64,000 nucleotides of DNA from Candidatus Limimorpha sp. (GTDB taxonomy: Bacteria > Bacteroidota > Bacteroidia > Bacteroidales > F082), in the NCBI GenBank assembly GCA_045120395.1, contig JBGVET010000026.1, forward strand, positions 5,691-69,690, in the 5' to 3' direction. This document shows positions 2,446 through 26,343 of the stretch, in pieces. Under the pieces are notes generated by a model. It searched no databases and was not told the DNA's origin. It saw only the letters and a program-made list of their open reading frames with translations. How positions within the stretch are numbered: the stretch's first letter is position 1; every line of letters starts with the position of its first letter. A program made the position numbers and the translations under genes.

Positions 2446-2488
2446 GTCTTCGCTATAATTGAAAAATATTAAAAACATATTAGACATT

Positions 2489-3685
2489 ATGGCAACAATA
2501 AAAGTAAAACTACGTCCTTCATTGGTGAAAGGGCGTGCTGGAACGATATTTTATCAAATATCACATCGTAGAACTACACAGCAAATAACAACCAGCATAA
2601 AATTGCATCCTCATGAATGGGATCCAGTTAAAGAACGAATTATGATAGATGTGAATAATAGAGTTATCGTTCAGAATCGTATTGACTGTGATACAGCGCT
2701 ATTAAAACACATTGTTAAAGATTTTGAGCATAAAGAAACAAATTATTCCGCCTATGATATTGTTAGACTTTATAAATCTATGGAATGTAATATATCTGTA
2801 TTTGATTTTATGCATACTCAAATACAGTTAATGCGTGATAGCAATCGTTTAGGCACAGCTTTGAACTATGAGAAAACATTGAAAAACTTCACGGAATTTC
2901 TTGGAGGTGTCGATTTACCTATACCTGTAATAAACGAACAACTCATAGCTGAATATAACGCATTTCTCATTAAGCGTGGAATGGTAAGAAATTCCATTTC
3001 ATTCTATATGCGTATAATGCGAGCTGTATATAATAAAGCTGTAAGGCAAAAACTAGTTAATCAAACATATCCATTTGCAGATGTTTATACAGGTATTGAT
3101 AAAACTCGTAAAAGAGCTGTTTCAGAATCTGTAATATCGCAGTTATATAAACTCAATTTAACTGAAAACAGTTCACTTGCACTTGCAAGGGATATATTCA
3201 TTTTTAGTTATTGTACTCGTGGAATGGCTTTCGTAGACATTGCATATTTAAAAAAGGAAAATATCCAAAATGATGTAATTTGCTATACTCGTCGCAAAAC
3301 AGGACAACTTTTAAGTATAAGAATAGAATCAAGCATACGATTGATTATTGACAGATATTCATCCAACCTATCACCTTATGTGTTCCCTATATTGACTTCT
3401 TTGGATATAAAGCAATCATACGAAGAGTATGTAACAGCAATTAACAACTACAATCGTTTGTTAAAAATATTATCAAAGATGTTACCTGATAGTTGTAAAC
3501 TTACCTCATACACTTCAAGGCATAGTTGGGCAACTGCCGCAAGAAATCATAACGTGCCAATTTCTGTTATCAGCGCAGGCATGGGACATTCTACAGAACT
3601 AACCACTCGTATTTATTTAAGTACATTGGAAAACTCAGTAATAGACGATGCTAACAAAGGAATAATCAAGGAATTACTTAAATAG
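2489..3685 (+). CDS. tyrosine site-specific recombinase (integrase/invertase type, IntDOT-like with N-terminal arm-binding domain)
   Basis: ATG at 2489 preferred over TTG 2459; N-term IKVKLRPSLVKGRAGTIFYQISHRR; catalytic region TRGMAFVDIA ... SRHSWATAARNHNVPISVISAGMGHSTELTTRIYL (R..HxxR..H..Y). Confidence 0.9.
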   Translation: MATIKVKLRPSLVKGRAGTIFYQISHRRTTQQITTSIKLHPHEWDPVKERIMIDVNNRVIVQNRIDCDTALLKHIVKDFEHKETNYSAYDIVRLYKSMECNISVFDFMHTQIQLMRDSNRLGTALNYEKTLKNFTEFLGGVDLPIPVINEQLIAEYNAFLIKRGMVRNSISFYMRIMRAVYNKAVRQKLVNQTYPFADVYTGIDKTRKRAVSESVISQLYKLNLTENSSLALARDIFIFSYCTRGMAFVDIAYLKKENIQNDVICYTRRKTGQLLSIRIESSIRLIIDRYSSNLSPYVFPILTSLDIKQSYEEYVTAINNYNRLLKILSKMLPDSCKLTSYTSRHSWATAARNHNVPISVISAGMGHSTELTTRIYLSTLENSVIDDANKGIIKELLK

Positions 3686-3999: not shown

Positions 4000-4458
4000 A
4001 TGATTGATAGTTTTATAGATACAACAGTTAATATAGAATATGGATTACTTATATCCATTGTTTTAGATGCGATGATATTACTTGTCCTATCATACGTTAA
4101 TAAAGGAAACAAGCTAAATGTCCTATCATATTTTATAGCATTAGCATTACTTATACCTCTTACAATACAAATAAGCCGTTTGATGGGAGCTTATGATCTT
4201 CTTAATACCACATCTGCAATTAATAGTATTGTTGAAGGTATATCACCAGCATTGAGTCAATATATATCAGGTACAGATAGCCACGATATAGAATGGTTTA
4301 TATTTAGACGTATTTTATGGTCTGTAATATTTATAATAATAGCATCTGTATGCATATATGTAACTATGGATAAGAAAAAAATAAGAAATCGTGATATACC
4401 TAACGGAGCTAATATAGGCAGAAGATATAGTTCAAATGTATCAAGAAGACGCAGATAA
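4000..4458 (+). CDS. small integral membrane protein (152 aa), first gene of tubulin-like operon
   Basis: Three to four hydrophobic helices, basic tail RRYSSNVSRRRR; 19 nt before next gene. Confidence 0.6.
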   Translation: MIDSFIDTTVNIEYGLLISIVLDAMILLVLSYVNKGNKLNVLSYFIALALLIPLTIQISRLMGAYDLLNTTSAINSIVEGISPALSQYISGTDSHDIEWFIFRRILWSVIFIIIASVCIYVTMDKKKIRNRDIPNGANIGRRYSSNVSRRRR

Positions 4459-4477: not shown

Positions 4478-7400
4478 ATGGCAACATTAAAAACAAATCA
4501 CATTTTAATAGGTCTTGGTGGCACTGGAGGAAAAATCCTTCGTGCTTTCAAAATGCGAATGTTTGAGGAATTTCCAAACAAGGAAGAACGCGAAAAACAG
4601 CCAATAGCACTTCTCTATGTGGATTCAACAAGAGAAATGATGGGTATTGGAAGAGCGGATATGGATGTAATGGGACAAGACGCTTCATTTGGGGAAAATG
4701 AGTTTTTATATATAAAAGGATGTGACGTGCCAGACCTTCTGGATAACATTGACAATCATCCTGAACTTAAAGGTATTGTCAACAATGTAGGTGCTGTTCG
4801 TACTGCCATTGGAAATCTTGGCGAAGCTGCTGGTCAGAAACGTCGTGCTGGACGTCTTCTTTTTGCAGTTAATGCTCGTAAATACGTTGATGCTTTAAAA
4901 AACTGTTTTTCAAAGTGTAATGAACGTTCTCATAATAATACCAAACAAGTACATATATTTGCAGGTCTATGCGGTGGAACAGGTTCTGGTTCAATTATAG
5001 ATGCTATTGTTCAAGCTAGAAATATATCAGGTTGGGAAAATGCGCAGATAAACGTTTATGCTATGATTCCAGAACAAGATCTTCCTAAGGCTGATATGGA
5101 TAAAGGCAGATATTATGAAAATGGTTATGCCGCACTTAATGAATTGAATGCACTTCAATGTGGACGTTATAATCCATGTGATGTATTGGCAAGTGGTTCT
5201 CCGTTAAATGTATTCAGCGAACGAATCAAAGGTGTTGCAAATGGTATTGCTTTATATAGCAATGTTAATTCAAACGGTAGAATCGTTGATTCATTTGTGG
5301 AATTACCAAAGATAGTAAGTGATTATGTTTATTCTCGCATATTTCTTATAAATCAAGAAGCATCTGAATGTCATGATATTATCAGAGCTTTTAACTTTGA
5401 AAATATGGATGGTGCTGAGTTTGAGTATGATGAATGTGTTATTGCCAATGAAACTATGGCATCACAAGAATTACCAATTGCAAGGACTAAGAAATTATAT
5501 TCATTTGGTCTTAAACGTGTAATTTATCCAGAAATGCGTGTGCTTAAGCACATGACATACACCATTGGTCAAAATGTGCTTTATCAATTTAGATATAACA
5601 ATTGGCGTCCTAATATTGGTTTCATTGACGAAGAAGTTAATATAGACTATCGAGCAGAATATCTTAAAAATGATGTTTTAAATCGTTGGATGCTTGACGA
5701 ATCTCATCTCACATTAGAAGAAGAAATACTTACAGCAAAAGATGGTAACAAACATGAATCGTTTTCAAGAGAATGGCAAAGCAGAGTCAATGACTTTGCC
5801 GATTTCTGCAGTGAATCTGAATGCCCTTTGACAGAAATAAGTCGCCAAATGGATGGAATGTTTGAAGAAAGTTTCCGTAACGAGGGTGTCCGTAATTACT
5901 ATAGTAATAAACTTCGTTCCCTAAATTCTTTTGCTAAAGAAGTACGTTCTAATATAGAGAAAGAATTGTTTAACAAGTGGAGAGATGGACACATTTCTAT
6001 CATGGAACTTAGCCGTATAGGTGAATTGCTTGCCAATTATGTGGCTACTGACATGAAAAAGAAATTAGATGAATCTTTCGAAAACGCCAAAATAAAACTC
6101 GAAGATTCAGACTGCTTGCTTTCACAAATTTTGGATGATTGGACGCATGTAGGATTTATCGGTAAATTTGTGATGAAAAAGAAAAGCGACTACTATGTTG
6201 AATACCAAAATGAATTAGTTAATAATTTAAGTATCAGAACACTTCTTGTTGCATTGGATTTTGCTCATCAATTATCTTCTGAACTACAACGTGAAATTGG
6301 TAAGATGAGTGATGATATTAATTCCTTCAGCAAAATGCTTAATGATACTATTGACGAGACTAATCGCTTAATTACCGCTCAACAAAAAGTCAACAAAGGA
6401 CTTGAAGATATGCGCGGTGCAGTGATTGAAGTTAGTGAAGAAGAGCGTATGATTAAGTACGAAGAGGAATTGCGTTATGATAAAGAAGGTATGGGTAATA
6501 TTTCACGTCAACTTCGTGAAGCTATTCTTCCTGAAACAGAATTTAAAAACTTTGGTGATTTACTAACCCGTATTAATGAAAAGACCATCAAACATGTATT
6601 TGATGTCAGACTATCTGATATTATTCAGGCAAAACACGCTGATTTACCACCGTCATCAACTAAAATACTAGGTTTAAATATTCTTACACAATTACAACAA
6701 AAGTTAGGAAATAATTACCAAAAGATACAGGAATTTGCTCATGAAATTCTCGAACAAAGTGGTGCATATATCAATTTGGATCGTAATCAAATTATATCAA
6801 ACATTCGTAATAACGACCAACCTGATGAGAATAAGAATATCAATCTTCGCGAAGTTCTCATAAGCATACCATCACCTGATGACAATCCTGGATTAAAAGA
6901 ATTTGCCGAAGATTTAAAAAGAGCGTTTGAAAGTCAAGTTGAAAATGGAGTGAAACCTCCAAAAATCTTTATGGAAAGTTCTCGTAAGAATGAATTATCT
7001 ATCATCACTATAAACTACGCATTCCCAATGCGAGCAATTAGTTGGTTGTCTGGTTATAGAAAACGTTATGATAAATATCTTAACACAGGAAATGCCAGTC
7101 AAGATCTAAGTCGTTCTATATTACTTCACAGTGAAGGATTGGGCGATAATCTTCCTGATATTTTTGCAAAAACAGACGCTGAATTACGCAAAATAGATGA
7201 AGAGAACGCAAAGAAACACCCAATGGCTACTGCACCTGTGGGAAATACTGCTTTTCAGGCTCCGATGACAAATATGCCTCCAATGCCTGGCGCAGCTGTT
7301 CCTCCTCCGATGCAACCTGCGGAACCACAAGTACAAATGTTCTTATACATAGGTGGACAACAATATGGTCCTTATGATTTTAAAACATTAAAACAATTTG

Positions 7401-7576
7401 TTGCGACACAACAGTTAACACCTCAAACAATGGTATGGATGCAAGGCATGGCAGCATGGACACCAGCTGGACAAGTACCGGAATTACAAACTTTATTTGC
7501 TCCTACACCACCATCTCCTGGTATGCCTCCGATGCCTCCTACACCTGGTTCGGTACTACCTCCTATGAATATGTAA
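4478..7576 (+). CDS. tubulin/FtsZ-like GTPase (Tubulin_2-type) with long helical region and C-terminal proline-rich/GYF_2-like domain
   Basis: GLGGTGGK near N-terminus; FAGLCGGTGSGSIID resembles tubulin/FtsZ signature GGGTGSG; C-terminus PPMPGAAVPPPMQP, then YIGGQQYGPYDFKTLKQFVATQQLTPQTMVWMQGMAAWTPAGQVPEL (GYF_2-like), then PPSPGMPPMPPTPG. Confidence 0.75.
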   Translation: MATLKTNHILIGLGGTGGKILRAFKMRMFEEFPNKEEREKQPIALLYVDSTREMMGIGRADMDVMGQDASFGENEFLYIKGCDVPDLLDNIDNHPELKGIVNNVGAVRTAIGNLGEAAGQKRRAGRLLFAVNARKYVDALKNCFSKCNERSHNNTKQVHIFAGLCGGTGSGSIIDAIVQARNISGWENAQINVYAMIPEQDLPKADMDKGRYYENGYAALNELNALQCGRYNPCDVLASGSPLNVFSERIKGVANGIALYSNVNSNGRIVDSFVELPKIVSDYVYSRIFLINQEASECHDIIRAFNFENMDGAEFEYDECVIANETMASQELPIARTKKLYSFGLKRVIYPEMRVLKHMTYTIGQNVLYQFRYNNWRPNIGFIDEEVNIDYRAEYLKNDVLNRWMLDESHLTLEEEILTAKDGNKHESFSREWQSRVNDFADFCSESECPLTEISRQMDGMFEESFRNEGVRNYYSNKLRSLNSFAKEVRSNIEKELFNKWRDGHISIMELSRIGELLANYVATDMKKKLDESFENAKIKLEDSDCLLSQILDDWTHVGFIGKFVMKKKSDYYVEYQNELVNNLSIRTLLVALDFAHQLSSELQREIGKMSDDINSFSKMLNDTIDETNRLITAQQKVNKGLEDMRGAVIEVSEEERMIKYEEELRYDKEGMGNISRQLREAILPETEFKNFGDLLTRINEKTIKHVFDVRLSDIIQAKHADLPPSSTKILGLNILTQLQQKLGNNYQKIQEFAHEILEQSGAYINLDRNQIISNIRNNDQPDENKNINLREVLISIPSPDDNPGLKEFAEDLKRAFESQVENGVKPPKIFMESSRKNELSIITINYAFPMRAISWLSGYRKRYDKYLNTGNASQDLSRSILLHSEGLGDNLPDIFAKTDAELRKIDEENAKKHPMATAPVGNTAFQAPMTNMPPMPGAAVPPPMQPAEPQVQMFLYIGGQQYGPYDFKTLKQFVATQQLTPQTMVWMQGMAAWTPAGQVPELQTLFAPTPPSPGMPPMPPTPGSVLPPMNM

Positions 7577-7611: not shown

Positions 7612-8211
7612 ATGGATAATAGAAATTCAGGACGTATTAAAAAATACGGTGTTTGTTTAAATGACAAATGTTCACAATACAAAGTAGTTCAAGAAATAAT
7701 GCATGGTAATCTTGAATGCCCAGAATGCAAGAAGAAACTTTCTCCTTGCGCTCCTCCAAAGAAGAAAAACAACTCAAAACCTATAGTTGTTGCACTTATA
7801 TCCTTACTGTGTATTGGTGCTATCATAGGAGGCATATTTGTATTTTCAAAAAAGACAGTTACTAATACAGAGCAAACTATAATCGAAAAAAGTATTGTTG
7901 AGAAAGTAGAAACACCTGTTGAACCGGAAAAGATTACTTCAGATGATGGTGTTCTTAATCTAAGTTACGGAACATACACAGGTGCAACTAAAGACGGATA
8001 TCCTCATGGACAAGGTCGTTTGACATACACAAAATCACGTCAAATCAACCGAAATGACATTAAGAATCGTATCGCAAATGAAGGCGATTATGTGATTGGT
8101 GAATTTTTTAATGGATTTGTTGTCTATGGAAAACTTTATGATTCCAATGGCAATCTACTACGTTCACTTAATTTCGGCATTGGTTCAGAAAACAGTTATG
8201 ATTCTAAATAA
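7612..8211 (+). CDS. Zn-ribbon / single-TM / MORN-repeat protein
   Basis: CLNDKC...CPECKKK; TM IVVALISLLCIGAIIGGIFVF; MORN-like YTGATKDGYPHGQGRLTY and GDYVIGEFFNGFVVYGKLY. Confidence 0.6.
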   Translation: MDNRNSGRIKKYGVCLNDKCSQYKVVQEIMHGNLECPECKKKLSPCAPPKKKNNSKPIVVALISLLCIGAIIGGIFVFSKKTVTNTEQTIIEKSIVEKVETPVEPEKITSDDGVLNLSYGTYTGATKDGYPHGQGRLTYTKSRQINRNDIKNRIANEGDYVIGEFFNGFVVYGKLYDSNGNLLRSLNFGIGSENSYDSK

Positions 8212-8233: not shown

Positions 8234-9217
8234 ATGAGCAAAACAACTTATCATAGAATTCTAATATTGACTTTCGGTTTGTTCTTTTTTTCAAACACAA
8301 GTCATGCTCAAAAATTTTCTCTTTTCTCCAAAGAGGTTAAGAAAGATTATCCATCAGCAGTGTATAATTTTCTTGAAACATACCTTTACAAAATAGATAG
8401 TTTAGAAAGAGCAAATGAAAATATTGATAGGATTCTTCGTGATGATAAGGTGATATTTTTAGAAGGCTCCGCATCCTTGGCTCGTAATATTACACCAGAA
8501 ACATTGTGCAAAATAAAGACAATCGAAAACAAGTATTATGAAGTTTCTTGGCTTGACAATACAAATGAAACAATTTTATCTTTGGCTTTCCCAATGCAAT
8601 ATGAGTTATTGCTTGGCAGACCTAAAGTTGAATTAGAAAAAGAGTTGAAGTTTGTATTGTCGGTTTGTCAAGATTACATTCCTAAAAACGTGTCAAATAT
8701 CGATTTGTTCAATCAGGAAAATGGTGGTATTATGACCACATCAAGCTCAAACTACTATCTGGAAAATTTGAATACAACATCCTATTATATCATGTCGGAA
8801 ACAGGAGATACCATTCCTATTTTTTCTGATAAAGACAATTGGATGTCTGCTGTAAATTTATTCCAAGGATGTATTGATGATATATCCGAATACAAGTTGT
8901 ACATAGAACAAAATATGTATGGTTTTAAAAGTATTCAGTATACCATAACTTTACAACAATGGTTAGCATATTGTCAAAAGATGATGTTGACAACATATTT
9001 TGCTATAGAGGAAGAAAGAGAAGATGGATTTAAAGCCTTGCTTATTGCTGAAAGTCATGAATTAGGGTTTAATCATATGCTGTCATTGATAATTCCTTCA
9101 AACTTTGTTTCTAACAAACGTTCTGTTTTTAAGGCAACAATGAATGCATATATACCAACTCATAATGTAAAAGATTTGTATCAAGTATATGTTAAAAAAA
9201 CAAAGAAACAAATATGA
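8234..9217 (+). CDS. secreted hypothetical protein (signal peptide)
   Basis: N-terminal ILILTFGLFFFSNTSHAQ; operon context; no known motif. Confidence 0.55.
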   Translation: MSKTTYHRILILTFGLFFFSNTSHAQKFSLFSKEVKKDYPSAVYNFLETYLYKIDSLERANENIDRILRDDKVIFLEGSASLARNITPETLCKIKTIENKYYEVSWLDNTNETILSLAFPMQYELLLGRPKVELEKELKFVLSVCQDYIPKNVSNIDLFNQENGGIMTTSSSNYYLENLNTTSYYIMSETGDTIPIFSDKDNWMSAVNLFQGCIDDISEYKLYIEQNMYGFKSIQYTITLQQWLAYCQKMMLTTYFAIEEEREDGFKALLIAESHELGFNHMLSLIIPSNFVSNKRSVFKATMNAYIPTHNVKDLYQVYVKKTKKQI

Positions 9218-9918
9218 TGAGAAAATATATCATTATACTCACGATTTCTCTGATTATAGGGAATGTACACGCACAAAGTGAACAAGATAGAATAAATGAG
9301 ATAAAAAGCGACATTGGATATCTATATGCTACAGGGACGTCTATGAACAATGCAGATGAAGCTGCAAAAAACGCACAAGATTTACTTGCCGTAGAAATAG
9401 AGCAATGGTTAAAAGTAAATGTATCTGGTGATATTGCAGGTTACATAGCAAAGTCTCAGGGTAACTACTCTACAATACAAACAAGGCGTGGCAAGTTGTA
9501 TCGTGCGTTTGCATTTGTAAGCAAGATGGATATATTGCCATACTACCAAAAAGAAGATTTGATGCATGTTGAGTTTACAAATTCAGAAGAACAGCAAACA
9601 GAAAATAGCATAATTGAAGAAATATTATATTATCCAACTTCTGAAGAGCAACAAATGATGAACGTCAAAACTTTTACAGAGCTTAATGAATACATTAACC
9701 GAGGTAGAGAAGATAAAAGCATTATCGATGTCGGAAATTATGCAAATCTGCCACAAAATGGTGTTGTATATGTTTTTATTCATAACAGACAAGGTGAAGT
9801 GCCAGCTTGTATGAAAGTGACAGATGGCTTCGCTATCAATATTGCTACTGGCAAAGAGGATAATATATCAAAATATAAAGGATGCGGGGCGATATGGATT
9901 AAACAAAACAACAAATAA
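9214..9918 (+). CDS. secreted hypothetical protein (possibly LPP20-like)
   Basis: ATGA overlap with upstream gene; signal peptide IIILTISLIIGNVHAQ. Confidence 0.5.
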   Translation: MMRKYIIILTISLIIGNVHAQSEQDRINEIKSDIGYLYATGTSMNNADEAAKNAQDLLAVEIEQWLKVNVSGDIAGYIAKSQGNYSTIQTRRGKLYRAFAFVSKMDILPYYQKEDLMHVEFTNSEEQQTENSIIEEILYYPTSEEQQMMNVKTFTELNEYINRGREDKSIIDVGNYANLPQNGVVYVFIHNRQGEVPACMKVTDGFAINIATGKEDNISKYKGCGAIWIKQNNK

Positions 9919-9927
9919 AAGAAGTAT

Positions 9928-10914
9928 ATGAAAAAGATATTTTTAACATTAGTGTTATTGTCATTACTTTATAATGTCAATGCTACTGGAAAAGTTACAG
10001 TTCGTATTTCTGATGGTATTGAGAATACAACTGTCAAATCAAAAATGGAACAAGTTATTTCTAAAATTTTGACGGAAGCTAATGCTGCTCATAAAGAAAA
10101 AAGAGAATTAAATTATTCTATATTGGGAATACCTTCATCAGTACAAAGCTCTTTGGCTTCTCTTTGGGATAATTCTCCATTTATAAGTATGGATAATGAA
10201 ATTGTCGAACGCTGCATCACAACAGCTAATGGTTATCAGATAAGAAATATTCCTCTCATATTAAAACCGTTAAATTCTACAGATATAGAAGATGATGAAG
10301 ATTACCAAGAAGCTGTAGTCAGTTTTGATAAACAAGGAAACCTTACTTCATTTTATTTGTCTATCAGCATGAATCTATACATGAATGTAATCAGAGACAA
10401 TAAGGAAATAACAGATCTCCGTCGTCGTCAATTGATACTTGATTATGTAGAACAATTCAGAACTGCTTACAATCAGAAAGACCTTGATTTTTTAGAGGCG
10501 GTGTATAGTGACGATGCTCTTATTATAACAGGAAAGGTAATTAAAAGAAAACCTGTTGATGGTATAGTCATGCCAGATAAAATAGAGTATTCTCAGCAAA
10601 ATAAGAAGACATATCTAAACAATCTTGCTAAAATTTTCAATAGCAACAAACAGATTAGAGTACAATTTGATGAAGTTGAGGTAATGAGGCACGGTGTGTC
10701 TCCTGATATATATGGGGTTACATTGCATCAATCATGGACAACAGATACATATCATGATGATGGATATCTTTTCTTATTATGGGATTTCCGAGATGAAACA
10801 CACCCACAAATACACGTCAGAACTTGGCAACCAGATGCATATAACTCTGATGGCACTGGAACAAAACGTATCCCTAAAGATGAAATATTCAGTTTGAGCG
10901 ATTTTGATATATAG
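9928..10914 (+). CDS. secreted protein with C-terminal NTF2/SnoaL-like (DUF4440-like) region
   Basis: Signal peptide LTLVLLSLLYNVNATG; LDYVEQFRTAYNQKDLDFLEAVYSDDALIITG resembles NTF2-like fold starts. Confidence 0.5.
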   Translation: MKKIFLTLVLLSLLYNVNATGKVTVRISDGIENTTVKSKMEQVISKILTEANAAHKEKRELNYSILGIPSSVQSSLASLWDNSPFISMDNEIVERCITTANGYQIRNIPLILKPLNSTDIEDDEDYQEAVVSFDKQGNLTSFYLSISMNLYMNVIRDNKEITDLRRRQLILDYVEQFRTAYNQKDLDFLEAVYSDDALIITGKVIKRKPVDGIVMPDKIEYSQQNKKTYLNNLAKIFNSNKQIRVQFDEVEVMRHGVSPDIYGVTLHQSWTTDTYHDDGYLFLLWDFRDETHPQIHVRTWQPDAYNSDGTGTKRIPKDEIFSLSDFDI

Positions 10915-11252: not shown

Positions 11253-13355
11253 ATGAAGAGACTTTTTTTGTTATTGCTGTTTGTAAATAGTCTTGCTTAT
11301 GCTCAAAATTATAGTATAAGTAGCGTTATTGAACTTCAAAATGATTTGGCGGCCAGAAGAAATGTAGTGACTGACTCGTCGGGGATAGGTTGCGCTTTGA
11401 TTAGGGTAAACATTCCTTCTGTTAATAATATCAAATTTGATTCGTCAATAGTTGGCGAAGTAGAGTTTTTGCCAGGTGAATATAATGTTTATTTACCAGA
11501 ATATTCAAATTTATTATCAGTTTCAGTAGATGGAGAATGGTATGATATAGATTTTTCAAAATTCAATATTACGATTGAAGAGAAAAAATGCTATCGCATT
11601 ATTTTTAGGAAGAATATAAATACTAATGTACCTGTGGTTTCAAAAACTTCAATTAATGCAAATTATGACAACGTGGTGGTATTGATTGATGGTGTGCCTG
11701 TGGGACAAACTCCATTACAACTGGATAACATATCACTAGGAGAACATATTTTATCTGTCCCGAATACAAATGGAGTGACCATGCGTGATACAACTATTGT
11801 TTTCACAGAAAACAATATAATAAACTTGTTTCTGCACAAAGAGGATAAAAAAACAGTTATTGTTGACATGGCCACGCCAGGTGGGGATTCATGTGGATGG
11901 TATAATGTTTTTGGTACAAATATTAAAGAAGAAAATGGAAAAGTAGGTGTTGTTGAGTATACAGGAGATACAATTGTTCCCTTCGAATTTGATTATATAT
12001 ATCCAGGTATTCTGAATGGATATTATCTCGTGAATAAAGATGATAAATGGGGATTATACGATATGGATAAAGGCTTAGTTGTTCAGTGTGTATATGATAA
12101 TATAAGTGCATGGAAATCGTATGCTCATGATCAATATATGCCTGTTGCCCAGGATGATAAGTGGGGAGTTATTTCTCCAGAAGGGGAATTGATTATCCCT
12201 ATAAAATATGAAAATCATCCCCAACTATATGAAGATGTCATAAAAGTGGAATATATAGAACAAGAAAGTAAGAAAGAATTTTATGGAGTTTATTCATATG
12301 ATGGAGAAGAAATTATAAAACCTAAATACGAATATATGAATGAATTTGTTAATGGCTATGCTTTCTTTAGAAAGTATGATGACACAGTAGGTTTTGTTGA
12401 TATTTATGGAAATGAAACATATTTTCCAGAAGGTTATAGTGTTGGGAGTAGTTGGGGAATAGGTGGAACCATATTTAGGAGTAATCTCTTTAGAGTAAAA
12501 GATAAGGTATCAGGTAAATGGGGATACATGAACTCTCAACTTGAATTGGTTATTCCTTGTATTTATGATGCAATAAGTGAATACGACGCTGCACCTAATT
12601 TCAATAATGGAATAGTGCTATTAAAACTAAATGAAGATAAATTGGTATTGGACTCAAATGGTAACATTATTGTAAGTTGTAAAAATCATGGATACAGTGA
12701 TATTGAGATAGTTAGTCGTTCAAATTCCATATGGAATCATGGTCGTTTCTTTGAGTATCACGATTACTACGACATAGATAATAATACTCTTATTAAAGTT
12801 GTAAATTTAGATGCCAAATGTGGCCTTATAGATACAGATGGAAACATCATTGTTCCGTGCAAATATGAAGAAGATGACATACGATGGTTTTGTGATAATT
12901 ACACAAATTATTTTACTTTGTTAAATAACGATGAAGTAATTATATGTGACAAACATCAGAATGAGTTATTACGATTGCCTTCAAATCTTAGAATTCTTGA
13001 AATAACAGATGGATTCATTATGATTAAAGATGAAGAATCTGGATCTTATGGCTATCTTAATACAAAAGGTGAAATTTTAGCAAATTGTATTTATGGTAAT
13101 AGTTATAATGAACAACAGCTTGAAGGTGACAATGATGATAATGATGGGTATGACATGGCTAATGTTATAAATGAACAACCTATAACAGAAGGATTAGCAA
13201 TCTTAAATATAGGAGATAGATTTGGTTTTATTGATAATAATGGAAATGTTAAAGTGCCGCTTATTTATACTGCCGTAACACCATTTGAGAATGGTATGGC
13301 ATATGTTAGACAACAAAATGGAGAATGGAAAAAAATTTATAAAGACGAATTATGA
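11253..13355 (+). CDS. secreted PEGA-domain / WG (KWG) beta-repeat protein (700 aa)
   Basis: Signal peptide LLLFVNSLAYAQ; PEGA-like VVVLIDGVPVGQTPLQLDNISLGEHILSV; repeats DDKWGLYD, DDKWGVISPEGELIIP, SGKWGYMNSQLELVIP, KCGLIDTDGNIIVP, RFGFIDNNGNVKVP. Confidence 0.65.
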   Translation: MKRLFLLLLFVNSLAYAQNYSISSVIELQNDLAARRNVVTDSSGIGCALIRVNIPSVNNIKFDSSIVGEVEFLPGEYNVYLPEYSNLLSVSVDGEWYDIDFSKFNITIEEKKCYRIIFRKNINTNVPVVSKTSINANYDNVVVLIDGVPVGQTPLQLDNISLGEHILSVPNTNGVTMRDTTIVFTENNIINLFLHKEDKKTVIVDMATPGGDSCGWYNVFGTNIKEENGKVGVVEYTGDTIVPFEFDYIYPGILNGYYLVNKDDKWGLYDMDKGLVVQCVYDNISAWKSYAHDQYMPVAQDDKWGVISPEGELIIPIKYENHPQLYEDVIKVEYIEQESKKEFYGVYSYDGEEIIKPKYEYMNEFVNGYAFFRKYDDTVGFVDIYGNETYFPEGYSVGSSWGIGGTIFRSNLFRVKDKVSGKWGYMNSQLELVIPCIYDAISEYDAAPNFNNGIVLLKLNEDKLVLDSNGNIIVSCKNHGYSDIEIVSRSNSIWNHGRFFEYHDYYDIDNNTLIKVVNLDAKCGLIDTDGNIIVPCKYEEDDIRWFCDNYTNYFTLLNNDEVIICDKHQNELLRLPSNLRILEITDGFIMIKDEESGSYGYLNTKGEILANCIYGNSYNEQQLEGDNDDNDGYDMANVINEQPITEGLAILNIGDRFGFIDNNGNVKVPLIYTAVTPFENGMAYVRQQNGEWKKIYKDEL

Positions 13356-13996
13356 TCAGGTGTTTTTTTATCATTATAGCTACATTTATTAGTTTAAATT
13401 CGTTTGCGCAGAATTTAACTATAAATAGTTGCAAATATTGCAAGACGGATTCAACATATATTGTTTTACAGAGATATGACATAAATGATAATCCTTGTGC
13501 CATTATTAAAGTCTTCCCAAAAGATATTAAGGGAAAACTTGAATTTAAGGGTAATATTATAGGCGAAGTTATAAATAATGATGATCATTATGTTATTTAT
13601 GTCTTAAATAAGACTAAACGAATTAGTGTTTTCCATACAGATTATACTCCAGAAGTTATTGATTTTACAAAATATGATGATACTTCAATGGGTGTTGAAC
13701 AAAATAAAGTATATTATGTTCAGATAGCGGGAGATACTAAAAACACGTCGTCCTCAGATATGGTATACCCATCAGGATCTAGAGTACTATCATTTTCTTC
13801 AGATAATGAACTTAAGCAATTAGTTGTAAATGACATCGATTGGCAAATTGTTGATAATAGTGCAAAAAAGCTATTGCCATATGGGAAATATAAATATGAA
13901 GCAATCGATACTGAAGGACGATGTTTGAAGGGTGAAGTAGAGTTACTCCCTGCAATAGGGAGTAAGATTGTCAAATTAAATTTTGGTAATAATTAG
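13352..13996 (+). CDS. secreted hypothetical protein (214 aa)
   Basis: ATGA overlap with upstream gene; signal peptide FFIIIATFISLNSFAQ. Confidence 0.5.
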   Translation: MIRCFFIIIATFISLNSFAQNLTINSCKYCKTDSTYIVLQRYDINDNPCAIIKVFPKDIKGKLEFKGNIIGEVINNDDHYVIYVLNKTKRISVFHTDYTPEVIDFTKYDDTSMGVEQNKVYYVQIAGDTKNTSSSDMVYPSGSRVLSFSSDNELKQLVVNDIDWQIVDNSAKKLLPYGKYKYEAIDTEGRCLKGEVELLPAIGSKIVKLNFGNN

Positions 13997-14512
13997 ATGG
14001 AAAAATATAATCTTGAGGAATATGTGGTTAAAGCTTCTCCTAAAGTTAATCAATTATTGAGGGGTAATATTGATGCATCTGAATATACCTTTGACTCATT
14101 ATTTGAAAAAGGTATAGTATCCCAACCTCTTTATCGATTGATTAACAATGAGCATATTCACATTCAAGATGGAATCTTTGCTGATAAAGGATATTTGTCT
14201 TGTACAAGTGATTTTGATTCATTTATCCATCATGTAGATGGTGTAAATGTTGCATGTCTGCAATTTAATATACCCGATAGTTTTCAGAGAATAGATGTAC
14301 ACGCTTTATTGCCTGACCACACTGATGAAGGTGAAATAGTCCTTCCGAGAGGCCTTCAATTTAGGGTTGAAAGCGTACAAGAGTATGCGACTCCTAGTGA
14401 TATTCAAAATTTCTTGGATAATATAGGAAGTATCTCATCTGCTAAAGAAATTTGTGGTATATATGGAATAAAAACGATAACCTACTATAGATTATCACTA
14501 ATTCTGCATTAG
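13997..14512 (+). CDS. ADP-ribosyltransferase-like protein (C3/VIP2-type R-S-ExE pattern)
   Basis: VNQLLRG; PLYRLI (Arg); GYLSCTSD (STS-like); DEGEIVLPRGLQFRV (ExE + following LPRG); no signal peptide; ATG abuts upstream TAG. Confidence 0.65.
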   Translation: MEKYNLEEYVVKASPKVNQLLRGNIDASEYTFDSLFEKGIVSQPLYRLINNEHIHIQDGIFADKGYLSCTSDFDSFIHHVDGVNVACLQFNIPDSFQRIDVHALLPDHTDEGEIVLPRGLQFRVESVQEYATPSDIQNFLDNIGSISSAKEICGIYGIKTITYYRLSLILH

Positions 14513-14576: not shown

Positions 14577-15494
14577 ATGAATCCATTTGACGCAAACGAA
14601 AGACATAGATATATTATAGAATCTGGCGGCATCCCTGCATCTTCTAGAGAGGAGCAGGAGAAGGAAATGTGGGTTAACTCTATTAATGTTGATCTAGATA
14701 TTCCTATATATCGTTATATGAAATGGGAATATCTACAAAAGTTTTATTCCTCTACACGGCATGAATGGATATTAGCACATCCGTGTTTATGGCAAGATAA
14801 GTTTGAGCATTTTATATTTAAATGCGAGAAGGTCCATAGTTCGAAAATGAATATCGATATTGAAATATCAAATCTTGCAGATCATTATTATGCCCAATGT
14901 TGGACTATTGTTGAAGAATCTTCATTGCAATGGCAGGTTAATAAGCCCCATACTAATAGTTGTCACGATAATGTAGGGGATGATGAAAATGGAGAAATTT
15001 GGGTAAAAGTACGAACTACGCCGAGAAAACTATTAGGAGCAATGTTTTATTCTTCAGACAATCTTGTGGAAAATTCCTACAATATGATAACATACTTTAT
15101 CGGTAAAGTAGAATATCTTGCTAGTGAAGATATTGAAAACTTTAAGATAACAGATTCTAATCAGTTAATGGACCAAACAGGTTTACTGCAGGTTTTATTT
15201 CTTTTGCAAAAAAGAATGCCATATATACAAGAGCAAGAAGTTCGACTAATTATGCAAGTTGATAGTAATTTTTGCAACAAACATCCAGAAAATATAGTTG
15301 GAAGAAGTATTGACAATTGGTATGATTTGATTGATGAAATTGTTCTTGATCCATGGGTTACCCAAAGTCAGGAGGAGACAGTTAAGTCGTATTTGTTACA
15401 ATTAGCCCAGCAACAAAACCGAACACCTATTAATTGTTGGAAGTCTCATTTAAATGATCATCCCCAATATTTGGTACCTATCCTGGATATTTAA
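14577..15494 (+). CDS. DUF2971-like hypothetical protein
   Basis: IYRYMKWEYLQKFYSS...LAHPCLWQDKFEHF resembles DUF2971 N-terminal pattern (YRY..., ..D.FE); last + strand gene before terminator. Confidence 0.4.
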   Translation: MNPFDANERHRYIIESGGIPASSREEQEKEMWVNSINVDLDIPIYRYMKWEYLQKFYSSTRHEWILAHPCLWQDKFEHFIFKCEKVHSSKMNIDIEISNLADHYYAQCWTIVEESSLQWQVNKPHTNSCHDNVGDDENGEIWVKVRTTPRKLLGAMFYSSDNLVENSYNMITYFIGKVEYLASEDIENFKITDSNQLMDQTGLLQVLFLLQKRMPYIQEQEVRLIMQVDSNFCNKHPENIVGRSIDNWYDLIDEIVLDPWVTQSQEETVKSYLLQLAQQQNRTPINCWKSHLNDHPQYLVPILDI

Positions 15495-15543: not shown

Positions 15544-17742
15544 CTACAAAAACCATAAATGGTTAGTATCAATATCGTAATTATTTACATCGTTGAAGTA
15601 TGGTAGCATCTGGGCTATCATCTCTGGGTATTTGATTGTTACTGGTAGGTTTTGTTGTTTGACTGATTTCCAATAGATACGACTGAATTGATATACTTGG
15701 TCGATGAGCTGATTGATTGTTGTGGTGTCAATGTCGAGCATAGGGTCGTTGGGACAGTCTATCTTTATTTTTATCGGGAATGGGTATCCGTCGTATGGGT
15801 TTAACCTTGCATTTTCGTAGCGTGTGTTGTTGCATAAAAGATATGTCTTGTCGCCTAAATTAACGTATGTTCCGCTGTATGGCATTAGTTCTTTGTAATT
15901 GTCATCAAATACCACATAGTCTTCTGATTCTGTCTTGTTTATTGACAATACATAAAATGGTATATCAAGATTGAGGTTGTGCAGTGCTTTTTCGATGTGC
16001 GCTATTTCTTTGTGGTTCATAGTTTTGTAATAGTGTATGATTAGTCGTTGTGGTTTGCCGTTTGCAACTGCAAATTTAAGGATGGCATTTTCTATGGAAC
16101 CTGCCAGTTCTTCTAATTCATCATTTAAAAAGTAGGCAAAGGAGTTGAAAGAACCTGTGTTGTCGAATGAGAATGCGGAACCTATATATTGTGTGTTTGT
16201 CTCTGTATTGCGAAATGCTCCTACACCTACTATGAGTTCGTCCTGTTTAGGTGACGATAGTCGCCAAGGTGTTCCGCCGAGTTTGGCATTGATGGCTATA
16301 GACATGTTTTGAAGAGTGTAGGCAAAGTTTTTCAGAGGTTTGCCGTTGCTGTCAGTATTTGTATTGTCGTGTTCAATCATGCTGAGCATTTTGGATGTTT
16401 CAATGCATTGCGAGACGATATTGTATCTGAGCAGTCTTTCTTTTACTCTGTAATATATCTTACGTTCTTCCTTGTCGGATGTGTGTCTGCCTATCGGCGT
16501 CAGGTATATGGCGATTATCTTTTCATTATGATTAAAAGTCATATTTCTAAGGAAGTCGTTCAGTTCTCCCAAGATATTGTTTGTGTCTTGTATTTCAAGA
16601 AATTTATTTGAGAAAGAAAAATCTCTACCTATGTATAGTTTTAGTCCTTTGAACAGTTGTTTATAGTCATTTTTGAAATATCTGAGGAGGTTTCTTGCTG
16701 CTTCTCTGTCTTCTTTCGGGAATATCGCCAACATTGTAATAGATGGATATGGCGTTGGCTGAAACGGACCGTGGTTAACTCCGATTTGTGGATTATAGTT
16801 TGTTGTATTGCCTCCAAACATCAGCGATCTGCTTGCTGAATTGGTGTGACCTATCTGCAAAGGATTAAGTTTAGCAAATCCATCTTCGATATTTATCAGC
16901 TTACGGAATTCATCGTTGTTGATAGTCTTATAAAAAGCAGAAATTTTGTCAAAGTATCTTTTGTATTTGTTTCTTGGATATGTCTTTTTGTAAGATAATG
17001 GTTCTTCGATTTCGTCTTCATCGGCAAATTCTATTTGCAGATAGTTTATCAGTTCACGATTCATTATAGGATATGCGGCGTTTGAATCGAAGTTTTCTGT
17101 AAGAGATATTGAACTGTATTTATCTACAATGAATTTTGTGAATTTGTCTTTTCTTCTGTAAACGACTTTTCCGAAGAGTTCGGCTGATGGCTGTATCGGT
17201 GAAAATGGGTCGTCGGATGACTGCATAATCTTTGCCACCGAATATTTATACACCCATGTCGGACGGTCGTATGTGATGACGAGCTGCGGTGTGTTGTTAA
17301 ATCTATCGTAGTTGACTTTTAGAGTAAAACGGTCATATTTGATACATTCAGGATAAGGATTATCTCTACCATCTCTGAACCAAATCTGATTGTCTTTTGT
17401 TATTTTATTGGTTTCTATCAGAAAGTTCTTACTTACAAAATATTGGTAAATAAGTCTGTTGTAGTATCGTTTTGCGAATGCAAAATTTCTCGGGTCACGC
17501 AGGTCTATCTTGACAGGTGTGAATCCGTTAGTTTCGACTTCAAATGTTGAATAAATCTTGTCTCCATTTTTAAAATCAGGGAATGCTTCTTCCAATTCTA
17601 TGGGTTTGTTGTGATGCGTCAAGAATGGGAAGTTTATTCTATCAGTTGTGTGCAAGAAATAGAATGTTTGCGGTTCTTCAGGAAATTGAAAGCGAATGGC
17701 GTTCAAGAAGAGAGATTCTTGTGATGATTGATTGTTGTTCAT
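15544..17742 (-). CDS. prokaryotic Argonaute, long form, predicted catalytically inactive (long-B-like)
   Basis: PIWI-entry motif NMSIAINAKLGGTPWRL; MID-like YYRVKERLLRYNIVSQCIETSK; DEDX positions substituted (LIVGVGAF where GxDV expected, LIIHYYKT where RDG expected); 732 aa. Confidence 0.8.
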   Translation of the reverse strand: MNNNQSSQESLFLNAIRFQFPEEPQTFYFLHTTDRINFPFLTHHNKPIELEEAFPDFKNGDKIYSTFEVETNGFTPVKIDLRDPRNFAFAKRYYNRLIYQYFVSKNFLIETNKITKDNQIWFRDGRDNPYPECIKYDRFTLKVNYDRFNNTPQLVITYDRPTWVYKYSVAKIMQSSDDPFSPIQPSAELFGKVVYRRKDKFTKFIVDKYSSISLTENFDSNAAYPIMNRELINYLQIEFADEDEIEEPLSYKKTYPRNKYKRYFDKISAFYKTINNDEFRKLINIEDGFAKLNPLQIGHTNSASRSLMFGGNTTNYNPQIGVNHGPFQPTPYPSITMLAIFPKEDREAARNLLRYFKNDYKQLFKGLKLYIGRDFSFSNKFLEIQDTNNILGELNDFLRNMTFNHNEKIIAIYLTPIGRHTSDKEERKIYYRVKERLLRYNIVSQCIETSKMLSMIEHDNTNTDSNGKPLKNFAYTLQNMSIAINAKLGGTPWRLSSPKQDELIVGVGAFRNTETNTQYIGSAFSFDNTGSFNSFAYFLNDELEELAGSIENAILKFAVANGKPQRLIIHYYKTMNHKEIAHIEKALHNLNLDIPFYVLSINKTESEDYVVFDDNYKELMPYSGTYVNLGDKTYLLCNNTRYENARLNPYDGYPFPIKIKIDCPNDPMLDIDTTTINQLIDQVYQFSRIYWKSVKQQNLPVTIKYPEMIAQMLPYFNDVNNYDIDTNHLWFL

Positions 17743-25068: not shown

Positions 25069-26343
25069 CTATTCCTCCATATTAAGGTTGATGTTTTTCA
25101 AATTTTCAATGACAATAGCATTAGCAGCTGCTTCTTTCTTTTGGTCGACGATGTGAGCGTAGATCTGAGTCGTCTTAATGTCGGTGTGACCAAGCATTTT
25201 ACTTACAGTGTATATATCTGTACCGTGCGTTAGTTGTAATGTGGCGAATGTATGACGGAAGCAGTGGAAAGTTATATTGCGGTTGATACCAGCTGCTTTA
25301 ATCCACTTCTTTAATGGAGGTGAGATTTTGGTTACATCTGGAAGGTCGGCAAACACGAGTTGTTCCGGATGCTTTGGTTCGCCACAGATTTTATACGCTT
25401 GTTCGCTGATTGGCATATATTCAACACCTTTAGTTTTCTGCTGGGTGAAGTTGAGACGATATTTGTCACCGACTTTTTGCAACTCTCCCCATTTAAGTTT
25501 CTTGACATCGCAGTGGCGAAGACCTGTGAGAAGTGAAAAGAATGCGCCTTGTTTCACAACAGGTTTGTCACACTCGGTATTTACGAGAAGATTTATTTCT
25601 TCCAGTGTCAATGTTTCTCTGCGAGTGTCGAGTTCACGGATTCCCTTTGTCTTGGCAGAGAGGTCGATGGTCAGATAACCGTCAACGAAAGCTCTTTTAA
25701 GAACCGTCTTAAAAGTAGAGAAATAGTTAGATGCGGTATTTTGTGAGATTTCAACATTCTTACTGCCTGCGTTTGGTGCTTCAAGGAGGTATTTTCTGAA
25801 ACCTTCAATGAGTTTCATATTTATTTGTGAGAAAGCTACCACTTCGGATTTAGCGAATGCCTTAAACAATTCCAACACTCTTTTCGATGTGACAATCAAA
25901 GAACGTGACGCCTTCTTTTGTCGGTCGGTGATGAGTTTCAGGAAATATTCAATGAAGTTGCATTGTGACTTTAATTGTTGTTCTGCGAGCTCCGCTTCTT
26001 GGTCGGTGTAGAGTGCTTGGTTGTCGAACTCACGTTGACGGAGTTTCCGGACATTGTCGGCATAGATGCACACTTCTTGATCTGCGACACTACGGCATTG
26101 TATTATGCCGTTGATATCACGTTTGGGTTTGTATGTCGTTTTGGTGTCTGTTGTCCTTGCAGTGCGTGATTTATCCCAGATAGGAGTCGTTATTATCCTA
26201 TTGAGATATTCCCTTTCTCGTTTTACTTTAGTGCTGCCAGGAACAAACACTGGATATGACTCTAAATAGAGATACCATTCGTCGGCATATTCAGACTTCC
26301 TAAGTTTGACAGACACCTTTGTATTTATTATTGTTTTTCTCAT
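25069..26343 (-). CDS. tyrosine site-specific integrase
   Basis: TGLRHCDVKKL; HCFRHTFATLQLTHGTDIYTVSKMLGHTDIKTTQIYAH (R, HxxR, H, Y). Confidence 0.9.
   Translation of the reverse strand: MRKTIINTKVSVKLRKSEYADEWYLYLESYPVFVPGSTKVKREREYLNRIITTPIWDKSRTARTTDTKTTYKPKRDINGIIQCRSVADQEVCIYADNVRKLRQREFDNQALYTDQEAELAEQQLKSQCNFIEYFLKLITDRQKKASRSLIVTSKRVLELFKAFAKSEVVAFSQINMKLIEGFRKYLLEAPNAGSKNVEISQNTASNYFSTFKTVLKRAFVDGYLTIDLSAKTKGIRELDTRRETLTLEEINLLVNTECDKPVVKQGAFFSLLTGLRHCDVKKLKWGELQKVGDKYRLNFTQQKTKGVEYMPISEQAYKICGEPKHPEQLVFADLPDVTKISPPLKKWIKAAGINRNITFHCFRHTFATLQLTHGTDIYTVSKMLGHTDIKTTQIYAHIVDQKKEAAANAIVIENLKNINLNMEE

Follow-up and report, generated by a model that had tools for sequence, protein, structure and literature searches.

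A tubulin-like protein of the FtsZl1/Tubulin_2 family with a conserved Pro-GYF_2-Pro tail, and its operon in Bacteroidales

The DNA analyzed here, referred to below as the window, is a stretch of 64,000 nucleotides from Candidatus Limimorpha sp. (Bacteroidota, Bacteroidales; assembly GCA_045120395.1, contig JBGVET010000026.1, positions 5,691 to 69,690 of the forward strand). Near its beginning lies the gene of a 1032-amino acid (aa) protein, which we call TUB and which combines a tubulin/FtsZ-like N-terminal part with a C-terminal GYF_2 domain flanked on both sides by Pro-rich segments, PRS1 and PRS2. An initial annotation of this DNA had described the gene product as a tubulin-like GTPase whose tail carries a GYF_2-like domain together with its own potential ligands. 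The Pfam profile Tubulin_2 (PF13809) matches aa 9-368 with E=3.8e-43 (148.5 bits versus a cut-off of 27) and is covered from position 1 to position 355 of 356, and the profile GYF_2 (PF14237 / DUF4339) matches aa 955-1003 with E=1.7e-18 (66.5 bits versus a cut-off of 25.8), which corresponds to profile positions 2-50 of 50. Both matches are far above chance, and thus confirm this observation. The motifs on which it was based are all in place: GLGGTGGK, resembling the T1 loop, at aa 12-19 (nt 4511-4534); the T4-region motif GLCGGTGSGSIID at aa 163-175 (nt 4964-5002); the Pro-rich stretch PPMPGAAVPPPMQP at aa 934-947; the GYF block, which starts with MFLYIGGQQYGPYD at aa 954 and reaches ELQTLF at aa 1007; and the C-terminal stretch PPSPGMPPMPPTPGSVLPPMNM at aa 1011-1032. 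Neither a transmembrane (TM) segment nor a signal peptide is predicted in a scan of the 1032 residues, and therefore TUB should be cytoplasmic. The protein and its predicted parts, with the source of each assignment in brackets, are as follows.

4478..7576, + strand: TUB, FtsZl1/Tubulin_2-family protein with a Pro-GYF_2-Pro tail, 1032 aa (Pfam, AlphaFold)
4478..5632, + strand: tubulin/FtsZ-like core, a GTP-binding domain and a second subdomain, aa 1-385 (Pfam, Foldseek)
5384..5434, + strand: candidate T7-like acidic motif RAFNFENMDGAEFEYDE, aa 303-319 (conservation)
5633..6397, + strand: helical region including a three-helix stalk, aa 386-640 (AlphaFold, predicted local distance difference test score, pLDDT, >90)
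6398..7222, + strand: C-terminal body domains of mixed alpha/beta structure, aa 641-915 (AlphaFold)
7223..7333, + strand: PRS1, disordered Pro-rich linker, aa 916-952, 27% Pro, including MPPMPGAAVPPPMQP (pLDDT)
7334..7489, + strand: GYF_2 domain, aa 953-1004 (Pfam GYF_2, similarity to GltJ 7z3c)
7490..7573, + strand: PRS2, C-terminal Pro-rich peptide, aa 1005-1032, 39% Pro, ending the protein with ...GMPPMPPTPGSVLPPMNM

The full-length AlphaFold model of TUB, built on an alignment of 103 diverse family members, has a mean pLDDT of 90 and a predicted template modelling score of 0.82, with nearly all of aa 1-915 above 90. It supersedes an earlier model of aa 1-450 obtained with 52 close homologs, which was poor past aa ~290. 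The top 50 PDB matches listed by Foldseek for the TUB models all belong to the tubulin superfamily (CetZ, TubZ, alpha/beta/gamma-tubulin, BtubAB, and OdinTubulin), and the probability is 0.99-1.00 across these and the top 8 viral matches. The best match is CetZ (3zid; E about 1e-6, and 2.1e-6 with the full-length model; TMt 0.46-0.50); in the viral structure library the only credible matches are phage FtsZ, PhuZ, and tubulin-like proteins. The N-terminal tubulin/FtsZ fold, for which the initial annotation had proposed this kind of structural check, is thus well supported. Since the alignments of the full-length model to the superfamily extend over 345-380 columns, both tubulin-fold subdomains are predicted to be present, roughly within aa 1-385, and the model suggests that the TUB core has kept the complete two-subdomain tubulin fold. 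By sequence and predicted structure, TUB belongs to FtsZl1 (Pfam Tubulin_2), one of the branches of the tubulin/FtsZ superfamily.

The nucleotide-binding loops of the core are recognizable as well. In particular, the T1 loop GLGGTGG (aa 12-18) follows a predicted strand at aa 7-13 and conforms to the GxGxxG pattern, and the T4 loop CGGTGSG (aa 165-171), with Cys in the first position, conforms to the tubulin/FtsZ signature GGGTG[ST]G / [SAG]GGTG[SA]G; G166, G167, and T168 of the latter are conserved in at least 90% of the family, and G169 and G171 are invariant. Residue D49 is T2-like, and a T3-like stretch LGEAAGQKRRAGR occupies aa 114-126. The residues invariant across the 103 family members are G14, G15, G17, D49, R122, R126, G169, G171, D175, and N215. 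Glu-308 and Glu-316 are nearly invariant across the wider family and stand in the family-conserved motif RxExxEN...E (R303, E308, N309, E316), which follows the helix at aa 296-305; this stretch may be a candidate for the catalytic or 'synergy' T7 loop. In Pfam, a weak PF00091 match covers aa 135-172, the same domain is precomputed on many members of the clade, and neither FtsZ_C nor Tubulin_C is found on TUB. Tubulin or FtsZ was not found in PDB by sequence, either with TUB or with the 103-sequence profile, which returned the GltJ GYF domain and noise only.

The middle of the protein had been described as about 700 residues of helical or coiled sequence. This holds for the long helices of aa 391-634 and not for their surroundings: the core reaches to ~385, and domains of mixed alpha/beta structure with beta-sheets occupy aa 649-915. 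The core is followed by helices at aa 391-464 and then by three long ones (aa 471-502, 508-556, and 566-634), and the proline fraction of the helical region, aa 386-640, is 0.00. In the body domains, beta strands are predicted at aa 790-798, 829-834, and 839-847, and the domains close with the family-conserved motif LLHSEGLGDNLPDIF (aa 882-896). The whole TUB body aligns end to end with 102 family representatives at 21-57% identity.

The tail has a different character. Residues 918-945 (pLDDT <50) and 1012-1032 are disordered in the AlphaFold model, and between them lies the GYF block with strands 954-958 and 961-966 and helices 968-976 and 1000-1004 (pLDDT 52-77, falling below 50 at 988-995); its moderate confidence is due to the fact that only four alignment rows cover this region. 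The only solved sequence relative of TUB is the GYF domain of GltJ (7z3c; E=1.9e-5, aa 954-1021), with which it has GP[YF] and W..G...W.P in common. This similarity and the Pfam match (E=1.7e-18) agree in identifying the C-terminal block as a GYF_2 domain, as had been proposed.

To see how the tail is conserved, we used 120 database proteins and 80 genome loci as sources and obtained 196 clade members of full length. The GYF domain is present in 195 of them, the one exception being cut off at a contig end. Averaged over the 195 proteins, the proline content rises from 2.9% in the body to 24.6% in the 44 residues that precede the GYF domain and to 40% in the peptide that follows it; a PPxP motif occurs before the domain in 164/195 and after it in 181/195. 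The Pro-rich tracts on both sides of the GYF domain are therefore a conserved property of the clade and not an accident of one protein. The post-GYF peptide is mostly 18-23 aa long, and the PRS2 consensus MPPMPPxPG..PPPM is still recognizable down to ~50% identity.

The initial annotation regarded the ligand specificity of bacterial GYF_2 domains as not established, which no longer holds in full. In the work of Attia et al. 2024, the GYF domain of GltJ was shown to bind a Pro-rich sequence in AglZ, with an affinity in the micromolar range; the AglZ-binding face is a beta-sheet surface of a non-canonical kind, made up of those residues that are best conserved in bacterial GYF domains, and tubulin and FtsZ are not mentioned (PMC11135422). 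Because the GltJ domain binds a Pro-rich sequence, we suggest by analogy that the GYF domain of one TUB subunit would bind the Pro-rich tracts of neighbouring subunits. The head-to-tail self-association or filament cross-linking that the initial annotation had suggested for the tail may take place, and the comparative data are compatible with it, as they are with the autoinhibition and the membrane tether discussed below.

The tracts could instead be no more than stiff or disordered spacers, with the GYF domain binding an unrelated cellular protein. Disordered linkers rich in Pro are widespread among bacterial proteins, and in the 7z3c alignment the GYF domain of the GltJ construct, too, is followed by a segment containing Pro. 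We nevertheless regard this explanation as improbable. PRS2 ends the protein and therefore cannot be a linker; it links nothing, yet its motif and length remain constrained down to ~50% identity. Furthermore, the closely related GYF domain of a short TUB paralog, described below, has no Pro-rich flanks, and hence such flanks are not generic to GYF_2 domains. We read PRS2 as a putative conserved short linear motif.

In a second explanation, the GYF domain binds one of its own flanking tracts in cis and holds TUB in a closed state until a signal releases it. Ligand-like tracts lie 5-20 residues from the domain on both sides, the unit is inherited as a whole, and the intramolecular switch between the zinc ribbon (ZnR) and the linker of GltJ provides a precedent (PMC11135422). 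However, the AlphaFold model contains no confident docking in cis, the short spacers (~6 residues from PRS1 to the first strand, with PRS2 directly after the last helix) may prevent the chain from folding back, and the operon encodes no conserved candidate for a releasing factor. Autoinhibition of this kind therefore appears improbable to us, and contacts between neighbouring subunits remain the preferred role of the tail.

The distribution of the tail in the wider family was examined by running phmmer exhaustively with aa 1-420 of TUB as the query, which yielded 1081 representatives (50%-identity clusters) at E<=1e-3, 221 of them at E<=1e-30. Among the 114 full-length proteins within the best 150 representatives, a local hidden Markov model detected the GYF domain in three, all at least 54% identical to TUB. 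The survey of GYF tails among Tubulin_2 proteins that had been suggested thus gives 3/114 in the wider family versus 195/196 in the clade. About 100 of the 114 finish in a different, helical extension of ~130 aa. A sister group of ~860-920 aa ends right after the LLHxEGDG..LP.LF motif and lacks the entire Pro-GYF-Pro unit, and therefore the unit has been gained or lost as one module. Judged from these sequences, the tail is a clade-specific replacement of the usual helical C-terminus of the family.

The architecture Tubulin_2 plus GYF_2 is represented by more than 2589 clusters at 90% identity. Genome matches come from Prevotella, Bacteroides, Paraprevotella, Phocaeicola, Alloprevotella, Muribaculaceae, and Paludibacteraceae; cultured carriers include Xylanibacter brevis ATCC 19188 and Prevotella sp. 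MGM1, and the GYF-tailed clade is abundant in Bacteroidales of the gut and rumen. At NCBI, the clade member MBR6591026.1 is labelled 'DUF4339 domain-containing protein' only. Several short contigs carrying TUB with its gene cassette also occur in metagenome-assembled genomes (MAGs) of Firmicutes and Spirochaetota, namely Oribacterium, Waltera, Lactococcus garvieae, Acidaminococcaceae, and Sphaerochaetaceae (loci L003, L004, L005, L007, L029, L055, and L061), with proteins 48-82% identical to TUB. Since all other TUB relatives come from Bacteroidales genomes, these cases are most likely binning errors rather than inter-phylum transfers.

The TUB gene does not stand alone. It belongs to a gene cassette, which the initial annotation had missed and which is the strongest clue to the function of TUB. 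All its genes are on the same strand as TUB.

4000..4458, + strand: U, inner-membrane protein, 152 aa, with ~3 TM segments and a basic C-terminal tail (hydropathy)
7612..8211, + strand: D1, bitopic membrane protein with a zinc ribbon and a MORN-like external domain (homologs in 77/80 loci)
8234..9217, + strand: D2, exported protein, 327 aa, with a signal peptide (homologs in 73/80 loci)
9214..9918, + strand: D3, exported protein, 234 aa, with a signal peptide (homologs in 71/80 loci)
9928..10914, + strand: D4, exported protein, 328 aa, with a signal peptide and a C-terminal NTF2-like domain (homologs in 74/80 loci)
11253..13996, + strand: D5 and D6, variable exported proteins (PEGA + WG_beta_rep, 700 aa; and 214 aa) (Pfam)

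The counts refer to 80 related genome loci in which the partners were sought by iterative searching; most of the missing cases are loci at contig ends. U is the first gene of the cassette, with TM segments at ~aa 9-36, 38-64, and 97-125 by hydropathy, and has homologs in 73/80 loci, directly upstream of TUB wherever tblastn detected them. D1 consists of a cytoplasmic Cys4 zinc ribbon (C15, C20, C36, and C39), a juxtamembrane SPCAPPKKK segment, a TM helix at aa 57-78, and an external domain with a weak Pfam match to MORN; its four Cys are invariant across three clades, the distant ones included, and the clade consensus of the juxtamembrane Pro/Lys motif is LRECPPPKK. D2 and D3 belong to no known family, and neither has a match in Pfam over its family members or in PDB with its family profile. 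In the D4 family, a Cds6_C NTF2-like Pfam match is seen in 15/25 members (best E=9.9e-7), and the family profile finds no match in PDB. Signal peptides are predicted in all of D2-D6. D5 and D6 start after a gap of 338 nt and have relatives in 33-37 of the 80 loci; elsewhere their place is taken by PEGA, FGE-sulfatase, or Sel1 proteins. Exported proteins encoded after the cassette in locus L084 (16690-18741 and 22170-23057) combine PEGA repeats with an FGE-sulfatase (FGS) domain and Sel1/TPR repeats.

The intergenic gaps along U-TUB-D1-D2-D3-D4 in the window are 19, 35, 22, -4, and 9 nt. U and D1-D4 keep the same order and strand around TUB and are each found in 71-77 of the 80 loci. This is a conserved Bacteroidales operon with TUB as its cytoplasmic core. 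Given the cytoplasmic TUB, the inner-membrane U and D1, and the exported D2-D4, the operon looks like an envelope-spanning assembly, and we infer an envelope-related function for TUB. A scan for promoters and terminators of the cassette was uninformative, the region being AT-rich and Bacteroidota promoters lying outside the models of the scan.

The position of D1 raises the main rival to self-association, a membrane tether: the GYF domain and/or the terminal Pro peptide would dock on the zinc ribbon and Pro/Lys motif of D1, or on the basic tail of U, and thereby anchor TUB assemblies to a trans-envelope complex. D1 lies directly downstream of TUB in 77/80 loci and its Cys4 ribbon is invariant; a PPP motif stands right before the TM helix in 57/77 D1 proteins of the clade. 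A resemblance to FtsZ points in the same direction, as the disordered linker and terminal peptide of TUB recall the C-terminal linker and peptide of FtsZ, the latter of which binds FtsA/ZipA. In addition, ~44% of bacterial GYF proteins combine the domain with a zinc ribbon, and GltJ, a ZnR-GYF protein binding the Pro-rich coiled-coil protein AglZ, offers a parallel (PMC11135422). The comparison of loci argues against an obligatory link, however. The D1 proteins of L008, L017, and L022 have no Pro motif, yet TUB of these loci keeps the GYF domain and both tracts; conversely, the sister clade, which lacks the tail, has retained both the zinc ribbon and ECPPPVPPEPWWKK in its D1. With the Pro motif and the tail thus varying independently of each other, the CPPPKK motif of D1 was rejected as an obligate GYF ligand. 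Finally, in a distant clade whose TUB homolog has a helical C-terminus, the cassette contains a U-like protein and a D1 of the type ZnR-TM-Big_2-MORN without the CPPP motif. Since the ZnR-TM partner is present where GYF is absent, D1 is ancestral and independent of the tail, and the ancestral TUB-D1 contact cannot depend on the tail. On this evidence tethering by the tail is possible, though we consider it rather unlikely, and self-association of TUB through the tail remains the preferred explanation.

The related clades supply further observations. The operon is likewise retained in the tail-less sister clade, a result to which P0127, P0129, and P0148 do not contribute, as their contigs are too short. 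In one sister-clade locus (L087:4357-6060, + strand) D1 is enlarged to 567 aa, with ~7 tandem MORN-like repeats outside the membrane. The distant-clade cassettes add a second, short Tubulin_2 paralog. Two paralogs are encoded in one operon in L089 (5866-7404 and 8001-11093; 512 and 1030 aa), and two long ones in L092 (6001-8667 and 9627-12773; 888 and 1048 aa). Such pairs hint at heteromeric assemblies, as in alpha/beta-tubulin or BtubA/B. Within the GYF-tailed clade, the cassettes of two Bacteroidaceae loci among the 80 (L021 and L032) end with a short Tubulin_2 paralog of 576-583 aa, which has a closely related C-terminal GYF_2 domain and no Pro-rich flanks; it is encoded at L032:18611-20341 (+ strand) and by the L021 open reading frame (ORF) from near nt 10150. 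A GYF domain of this kind is consistent with GYF-to-Pro-tract contacts between tubulin-like subunits.

The interpretation that we tentatively favour, and to which we give slightly less than an even chance, is that TUB forms GTP-dependent assemblies beneath the membrane complex and that its tail, through contacts of GYF domains with Pro-rich tracts of the kind known from GltJ, acts as a multivalent 'sticker' that would bundle, cross-link, or concentrate these assemblies. Several points weigh against it. GTP binding, polymerization, and binding of the GYF domain to its own tracts are predictions. No NxDxxD/E T7 motif could be aligned in TUB, and an hhalign comparison of the family profile with E. 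coli FtsZ, which serves as a lead and is not used as evidence, gave a probability of 13% over T1 and T2 only. AlphaFold, with four alignment rows in this region, docks neither Pro tract onto the GYF block. Most of the family has no GYF domain and the tail-less sister clade retains the operon, and therefore the tail would be an accessory rather than the core mechanism. The Pro-rich tracts could also be ligands for a different partner.

A broader proposal goes beyond the role of the tail: the cassette as a whole might be an unrecognized envelope-spanning cytoskeletal machine of Bacteroidales, in which a GTP-driven stalked polymer of TUB is coupled via the zinc-ribbon membrane adaptor to proteins of the periplasm and surface, and its assembly is controlled by multivalent GYF/Pro contacts. 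We hold this to be unlikely. If true, this control would parallel, by convergence, the ZnR-GYF-PRS switch of the Myxococcus focal adhesions, and the cassette would provide the first function and mechanism for FtsZl1, for example in surface-layer organization, vesicle formation, or membrane remodelling.

The genomic setting of the cassette in the window is unusual. GC content is 0.28-0.35 up to ~18 kb versus roughly 0.40 in the rest, and window positions 1-27000 look like one or two integrated elements, which also hold a BT4734-like gene and several HTH_17 excisionase-like genes. Housekeeping genes resume with a class II tRNA synthetase at 27222. Neither a tRNA gene nor convincing att-like direct repeats mark the island boundaries in the window. 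The features of this region outside the cassette are listed below.

2459-3685, + strand, and 25069-26343, - strand: tyrosine integrases of the Bacteroidota type
13997-14512, + strand: ADP-ribosyltransferase-like ORF, 171 aa (ADPrib_exo_Tox, E=1.5e-6)
14577-15494, + strand: PDC-S31, candidate defence gene, tail-to-tail with the Argonaute gene (E=1.5e-39)
15544-17742, - strand: long prokaryotic Argonaute (pAgo) (PADLOC pAgo, E=1.5e-211; Pfam Piwi, E=9.5e-17)
20658-22541, - strand: DUF3987/PriCT_2 primase-helicase
26340-26891, - strand: mad1-like HTH protein

The ADP-ribosyltransferase-like ORF begins on the base after the stop codon of D6 and is absent from all related loci.

This neighbourhood, in which the cassette sits in a low-GC island between two integrases and beside pAgo and PDC-S31, suggests that the cassette could be an anti-phage or anti-invader conflict system, with NTP-dependent assemblies of TUB setting the threshold of the response. 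In agreement with this, proteins of Firmicutes and Actinobacteria that combine tubulin with a coiled coil were placed by Kaur et al. 2020 in conflict systems centred on GTPases, where GYF and FGS (FGE-sulfatase) domains are occasional accessories, GYF being found in Planctomycetes (PMC7159879), and FGE-sulfatase/PEGA proteins occur downstream of the cassette in some loci. The same paper counts FGS domains among the effectors or binders of these systems (PMC7159879). Moreover, genes for Trypsin_2 and TIR_2 proteins stand next to the distant-clade cassette on its downstream side (L089:17512-19093 and L090:14041-15556), and the GC content of the cassette is on average ~3 points below that of the upstream flank, being lower in 31/37 loci. 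A VapE/BT4734-like primase is found upstream of the distant-clade cassette in L089 and L090; this setting, which looks defence-like or mobile, is not seen in the main clade.

The wider comparison does not bear this explanation out. The 147 flanking genes from 60 loci match 151 different Pfam families, mostly housekeeping ones and none in more than three members; integrases account for two of these genes and protein kinases for three, the recurrent PADLOC matches among them are generic kinases or helicases only (3 members), and an integrase adjoins the cassette in 3/80 loci. In L081 and L084 the neighbours of the cassette are likewise housekeeping genes. As a general rule, cargo of mobile or defence islands was therefore rejected as a description of the cassette. 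pAgo and PDC-S31 accompany it in none of the 80 related loci, and the pAgo island of this window is an exception among the cassette flanks. Within the cassette, Pfam, NCBIfam, and PADLOC reveal no recognizable effector and no GAP1-type GTPase, vWA, FNIII, or HSP70, the latter four being absent from its near neighbours as well. PADLOC yields nothing significant, and NCBIfam nothing meaningful, for the ten proteins scanned, which extend from ORF 837-1811 through U and TUB to D6, and exported proteins of structural character prevail among the products of the cassette. A role in conflict is hence improbable, and the envelope-associated, GTP-dependent assembly outlined above remains the interpretation that we prefer.

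The fold and the T1 and T4 nucleotide-binding loops of TUB aa 1-385 are like those of CetZ, TubZ/PhuZ, FtsZ, and tubulin. The differences are considerable: identity to these proteins is 10-15% with TM-scores of 0.33-0.50, large insertions separate T2 and T3, ~530 extra ordered residues form the stalk and the alpha/beta body, and no T7 catalytic loop is identifiable in the TUB sequence. The conflict systems of the GAP1-N2/DO-GTPase type described by Kaur et al. share with the cassette the Tubulin_2-type proteins with helical C-termini and the membrane and extracellular partners. They differ in the GAP1 GTPase, vWA, FNIII, and HSP70, all absent from the TUB cassette, and in being known from Firmicutes and Actinobacteria, not Bacteroidales; the TUB flanks, in turn, are mostly housekeeping.

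A parallel in composition is offered by the GltJ-AglZ-MglA switch of the Agl-Glt focal adhesions of Myxococcus, which likewise brings together a GYF domain, a bitopic membrane protein that has a zinc ribbon and a periplasmic domain, a long helical protein bearing a Pro-rich sequence, and a GTPase. These parts are distributed differently here, with the GYF domain and Pro tracts on the GTPase/helical protein and the zinc ribbon on the separate D1; the presumed GTPase is tubulin-like and not Ras-like, and Agl/Glt homologs are not present. The NCBIfam model of GltJ (NF033761) scores 28.5 bits on TUB versus a cut-off of 450, over the GYF part only, and the ZnR-linker-GYF-TM arrangement that GltJ has on a single polypeptide is divided here between two proteins, so that TUB is not assigned to the GltJ equivalogs. 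The parallel is best regarded as an analogy of mechanism, not as membership.

The family to which TUB itself belongs, FtsZl1 ('FtsZ-like 1'), was described by Makarova and Koonin in 2010 as proteins of ~1000 aa that start with an FtsZ-like GTPase domain, continue into an extended coiled-coil, and have one more domain at the C-terminus; they were predicted to work with membrane proteins, elements past helix H5 were not alignable to FtsZ, and the reported gene context comprised a vWA protein, a P-loop GTPase, a Ser/Thr kinase, and an OmpA-like protein (PMC2875224). No experimental study or solved structure of any FtsZl1 member was found in the literature and PDB searched. TUB agrees with this description in its ~1000-aa architecture, the GGGTGSG-type loop, an operon rich in membrane and exported proteins, and coexistence with a canonical FtsZ. 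It departs from it in several respects. The TUB clade has Pro-GYF_2-Pro instead of the helical C-terminal extension. The vWA, P-loop GTPase, and OmpA-like proteins are not part of the TUB operon and a Ser/Thr kinase is seen only as a rare flanking one; by Pfam, none of the four is encoded among U and D1-D6 of the window or in L081-L090. The Bacteroides caccae example (913 aa; PMC2875224) represents a different subfamily with different neighbours. The TUB model, in turn, suggests a second tubulin subdomain, beyond the reach of the 2010 sequence alignment. Nevertheless, the layout of the operon agrees in spirit with the 2010 prediction of a membrane-associated complex.

The FtsZl1 family, the GYF_2 domain, and the binding of GYF domains to Pro-rich sequences were known before, and the Tubulin_2 plus GYF_2 architecture is displayed by domain databases. 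In the literature searched, we found no mention of the Pro-GYF-Pro tail specific to this clade, of the conserved operon in Bacteroidales and its zinc-ribbon membrane partner, or of a confident full-length model with the complete fold and its stalk. FtsZl1 is among the most divergent branches of the tubulin/FtsZ superfamily and has been uncharacterized for ~15 years since its description in 2010. Compared with the family as originally described, the GYF-tailed clade is tractable: it is abundant and includes cultured strains, its operon is compact and fixed, its topology from cytoplasm through membrane to periplasm is clear, and its tail is detachable, with the sister clade supplying a natural comparison of proteins with and without the tail. 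The question of what FtsZl1 proteins do, and whether they polymerize, thus becomes experimentally feasible.

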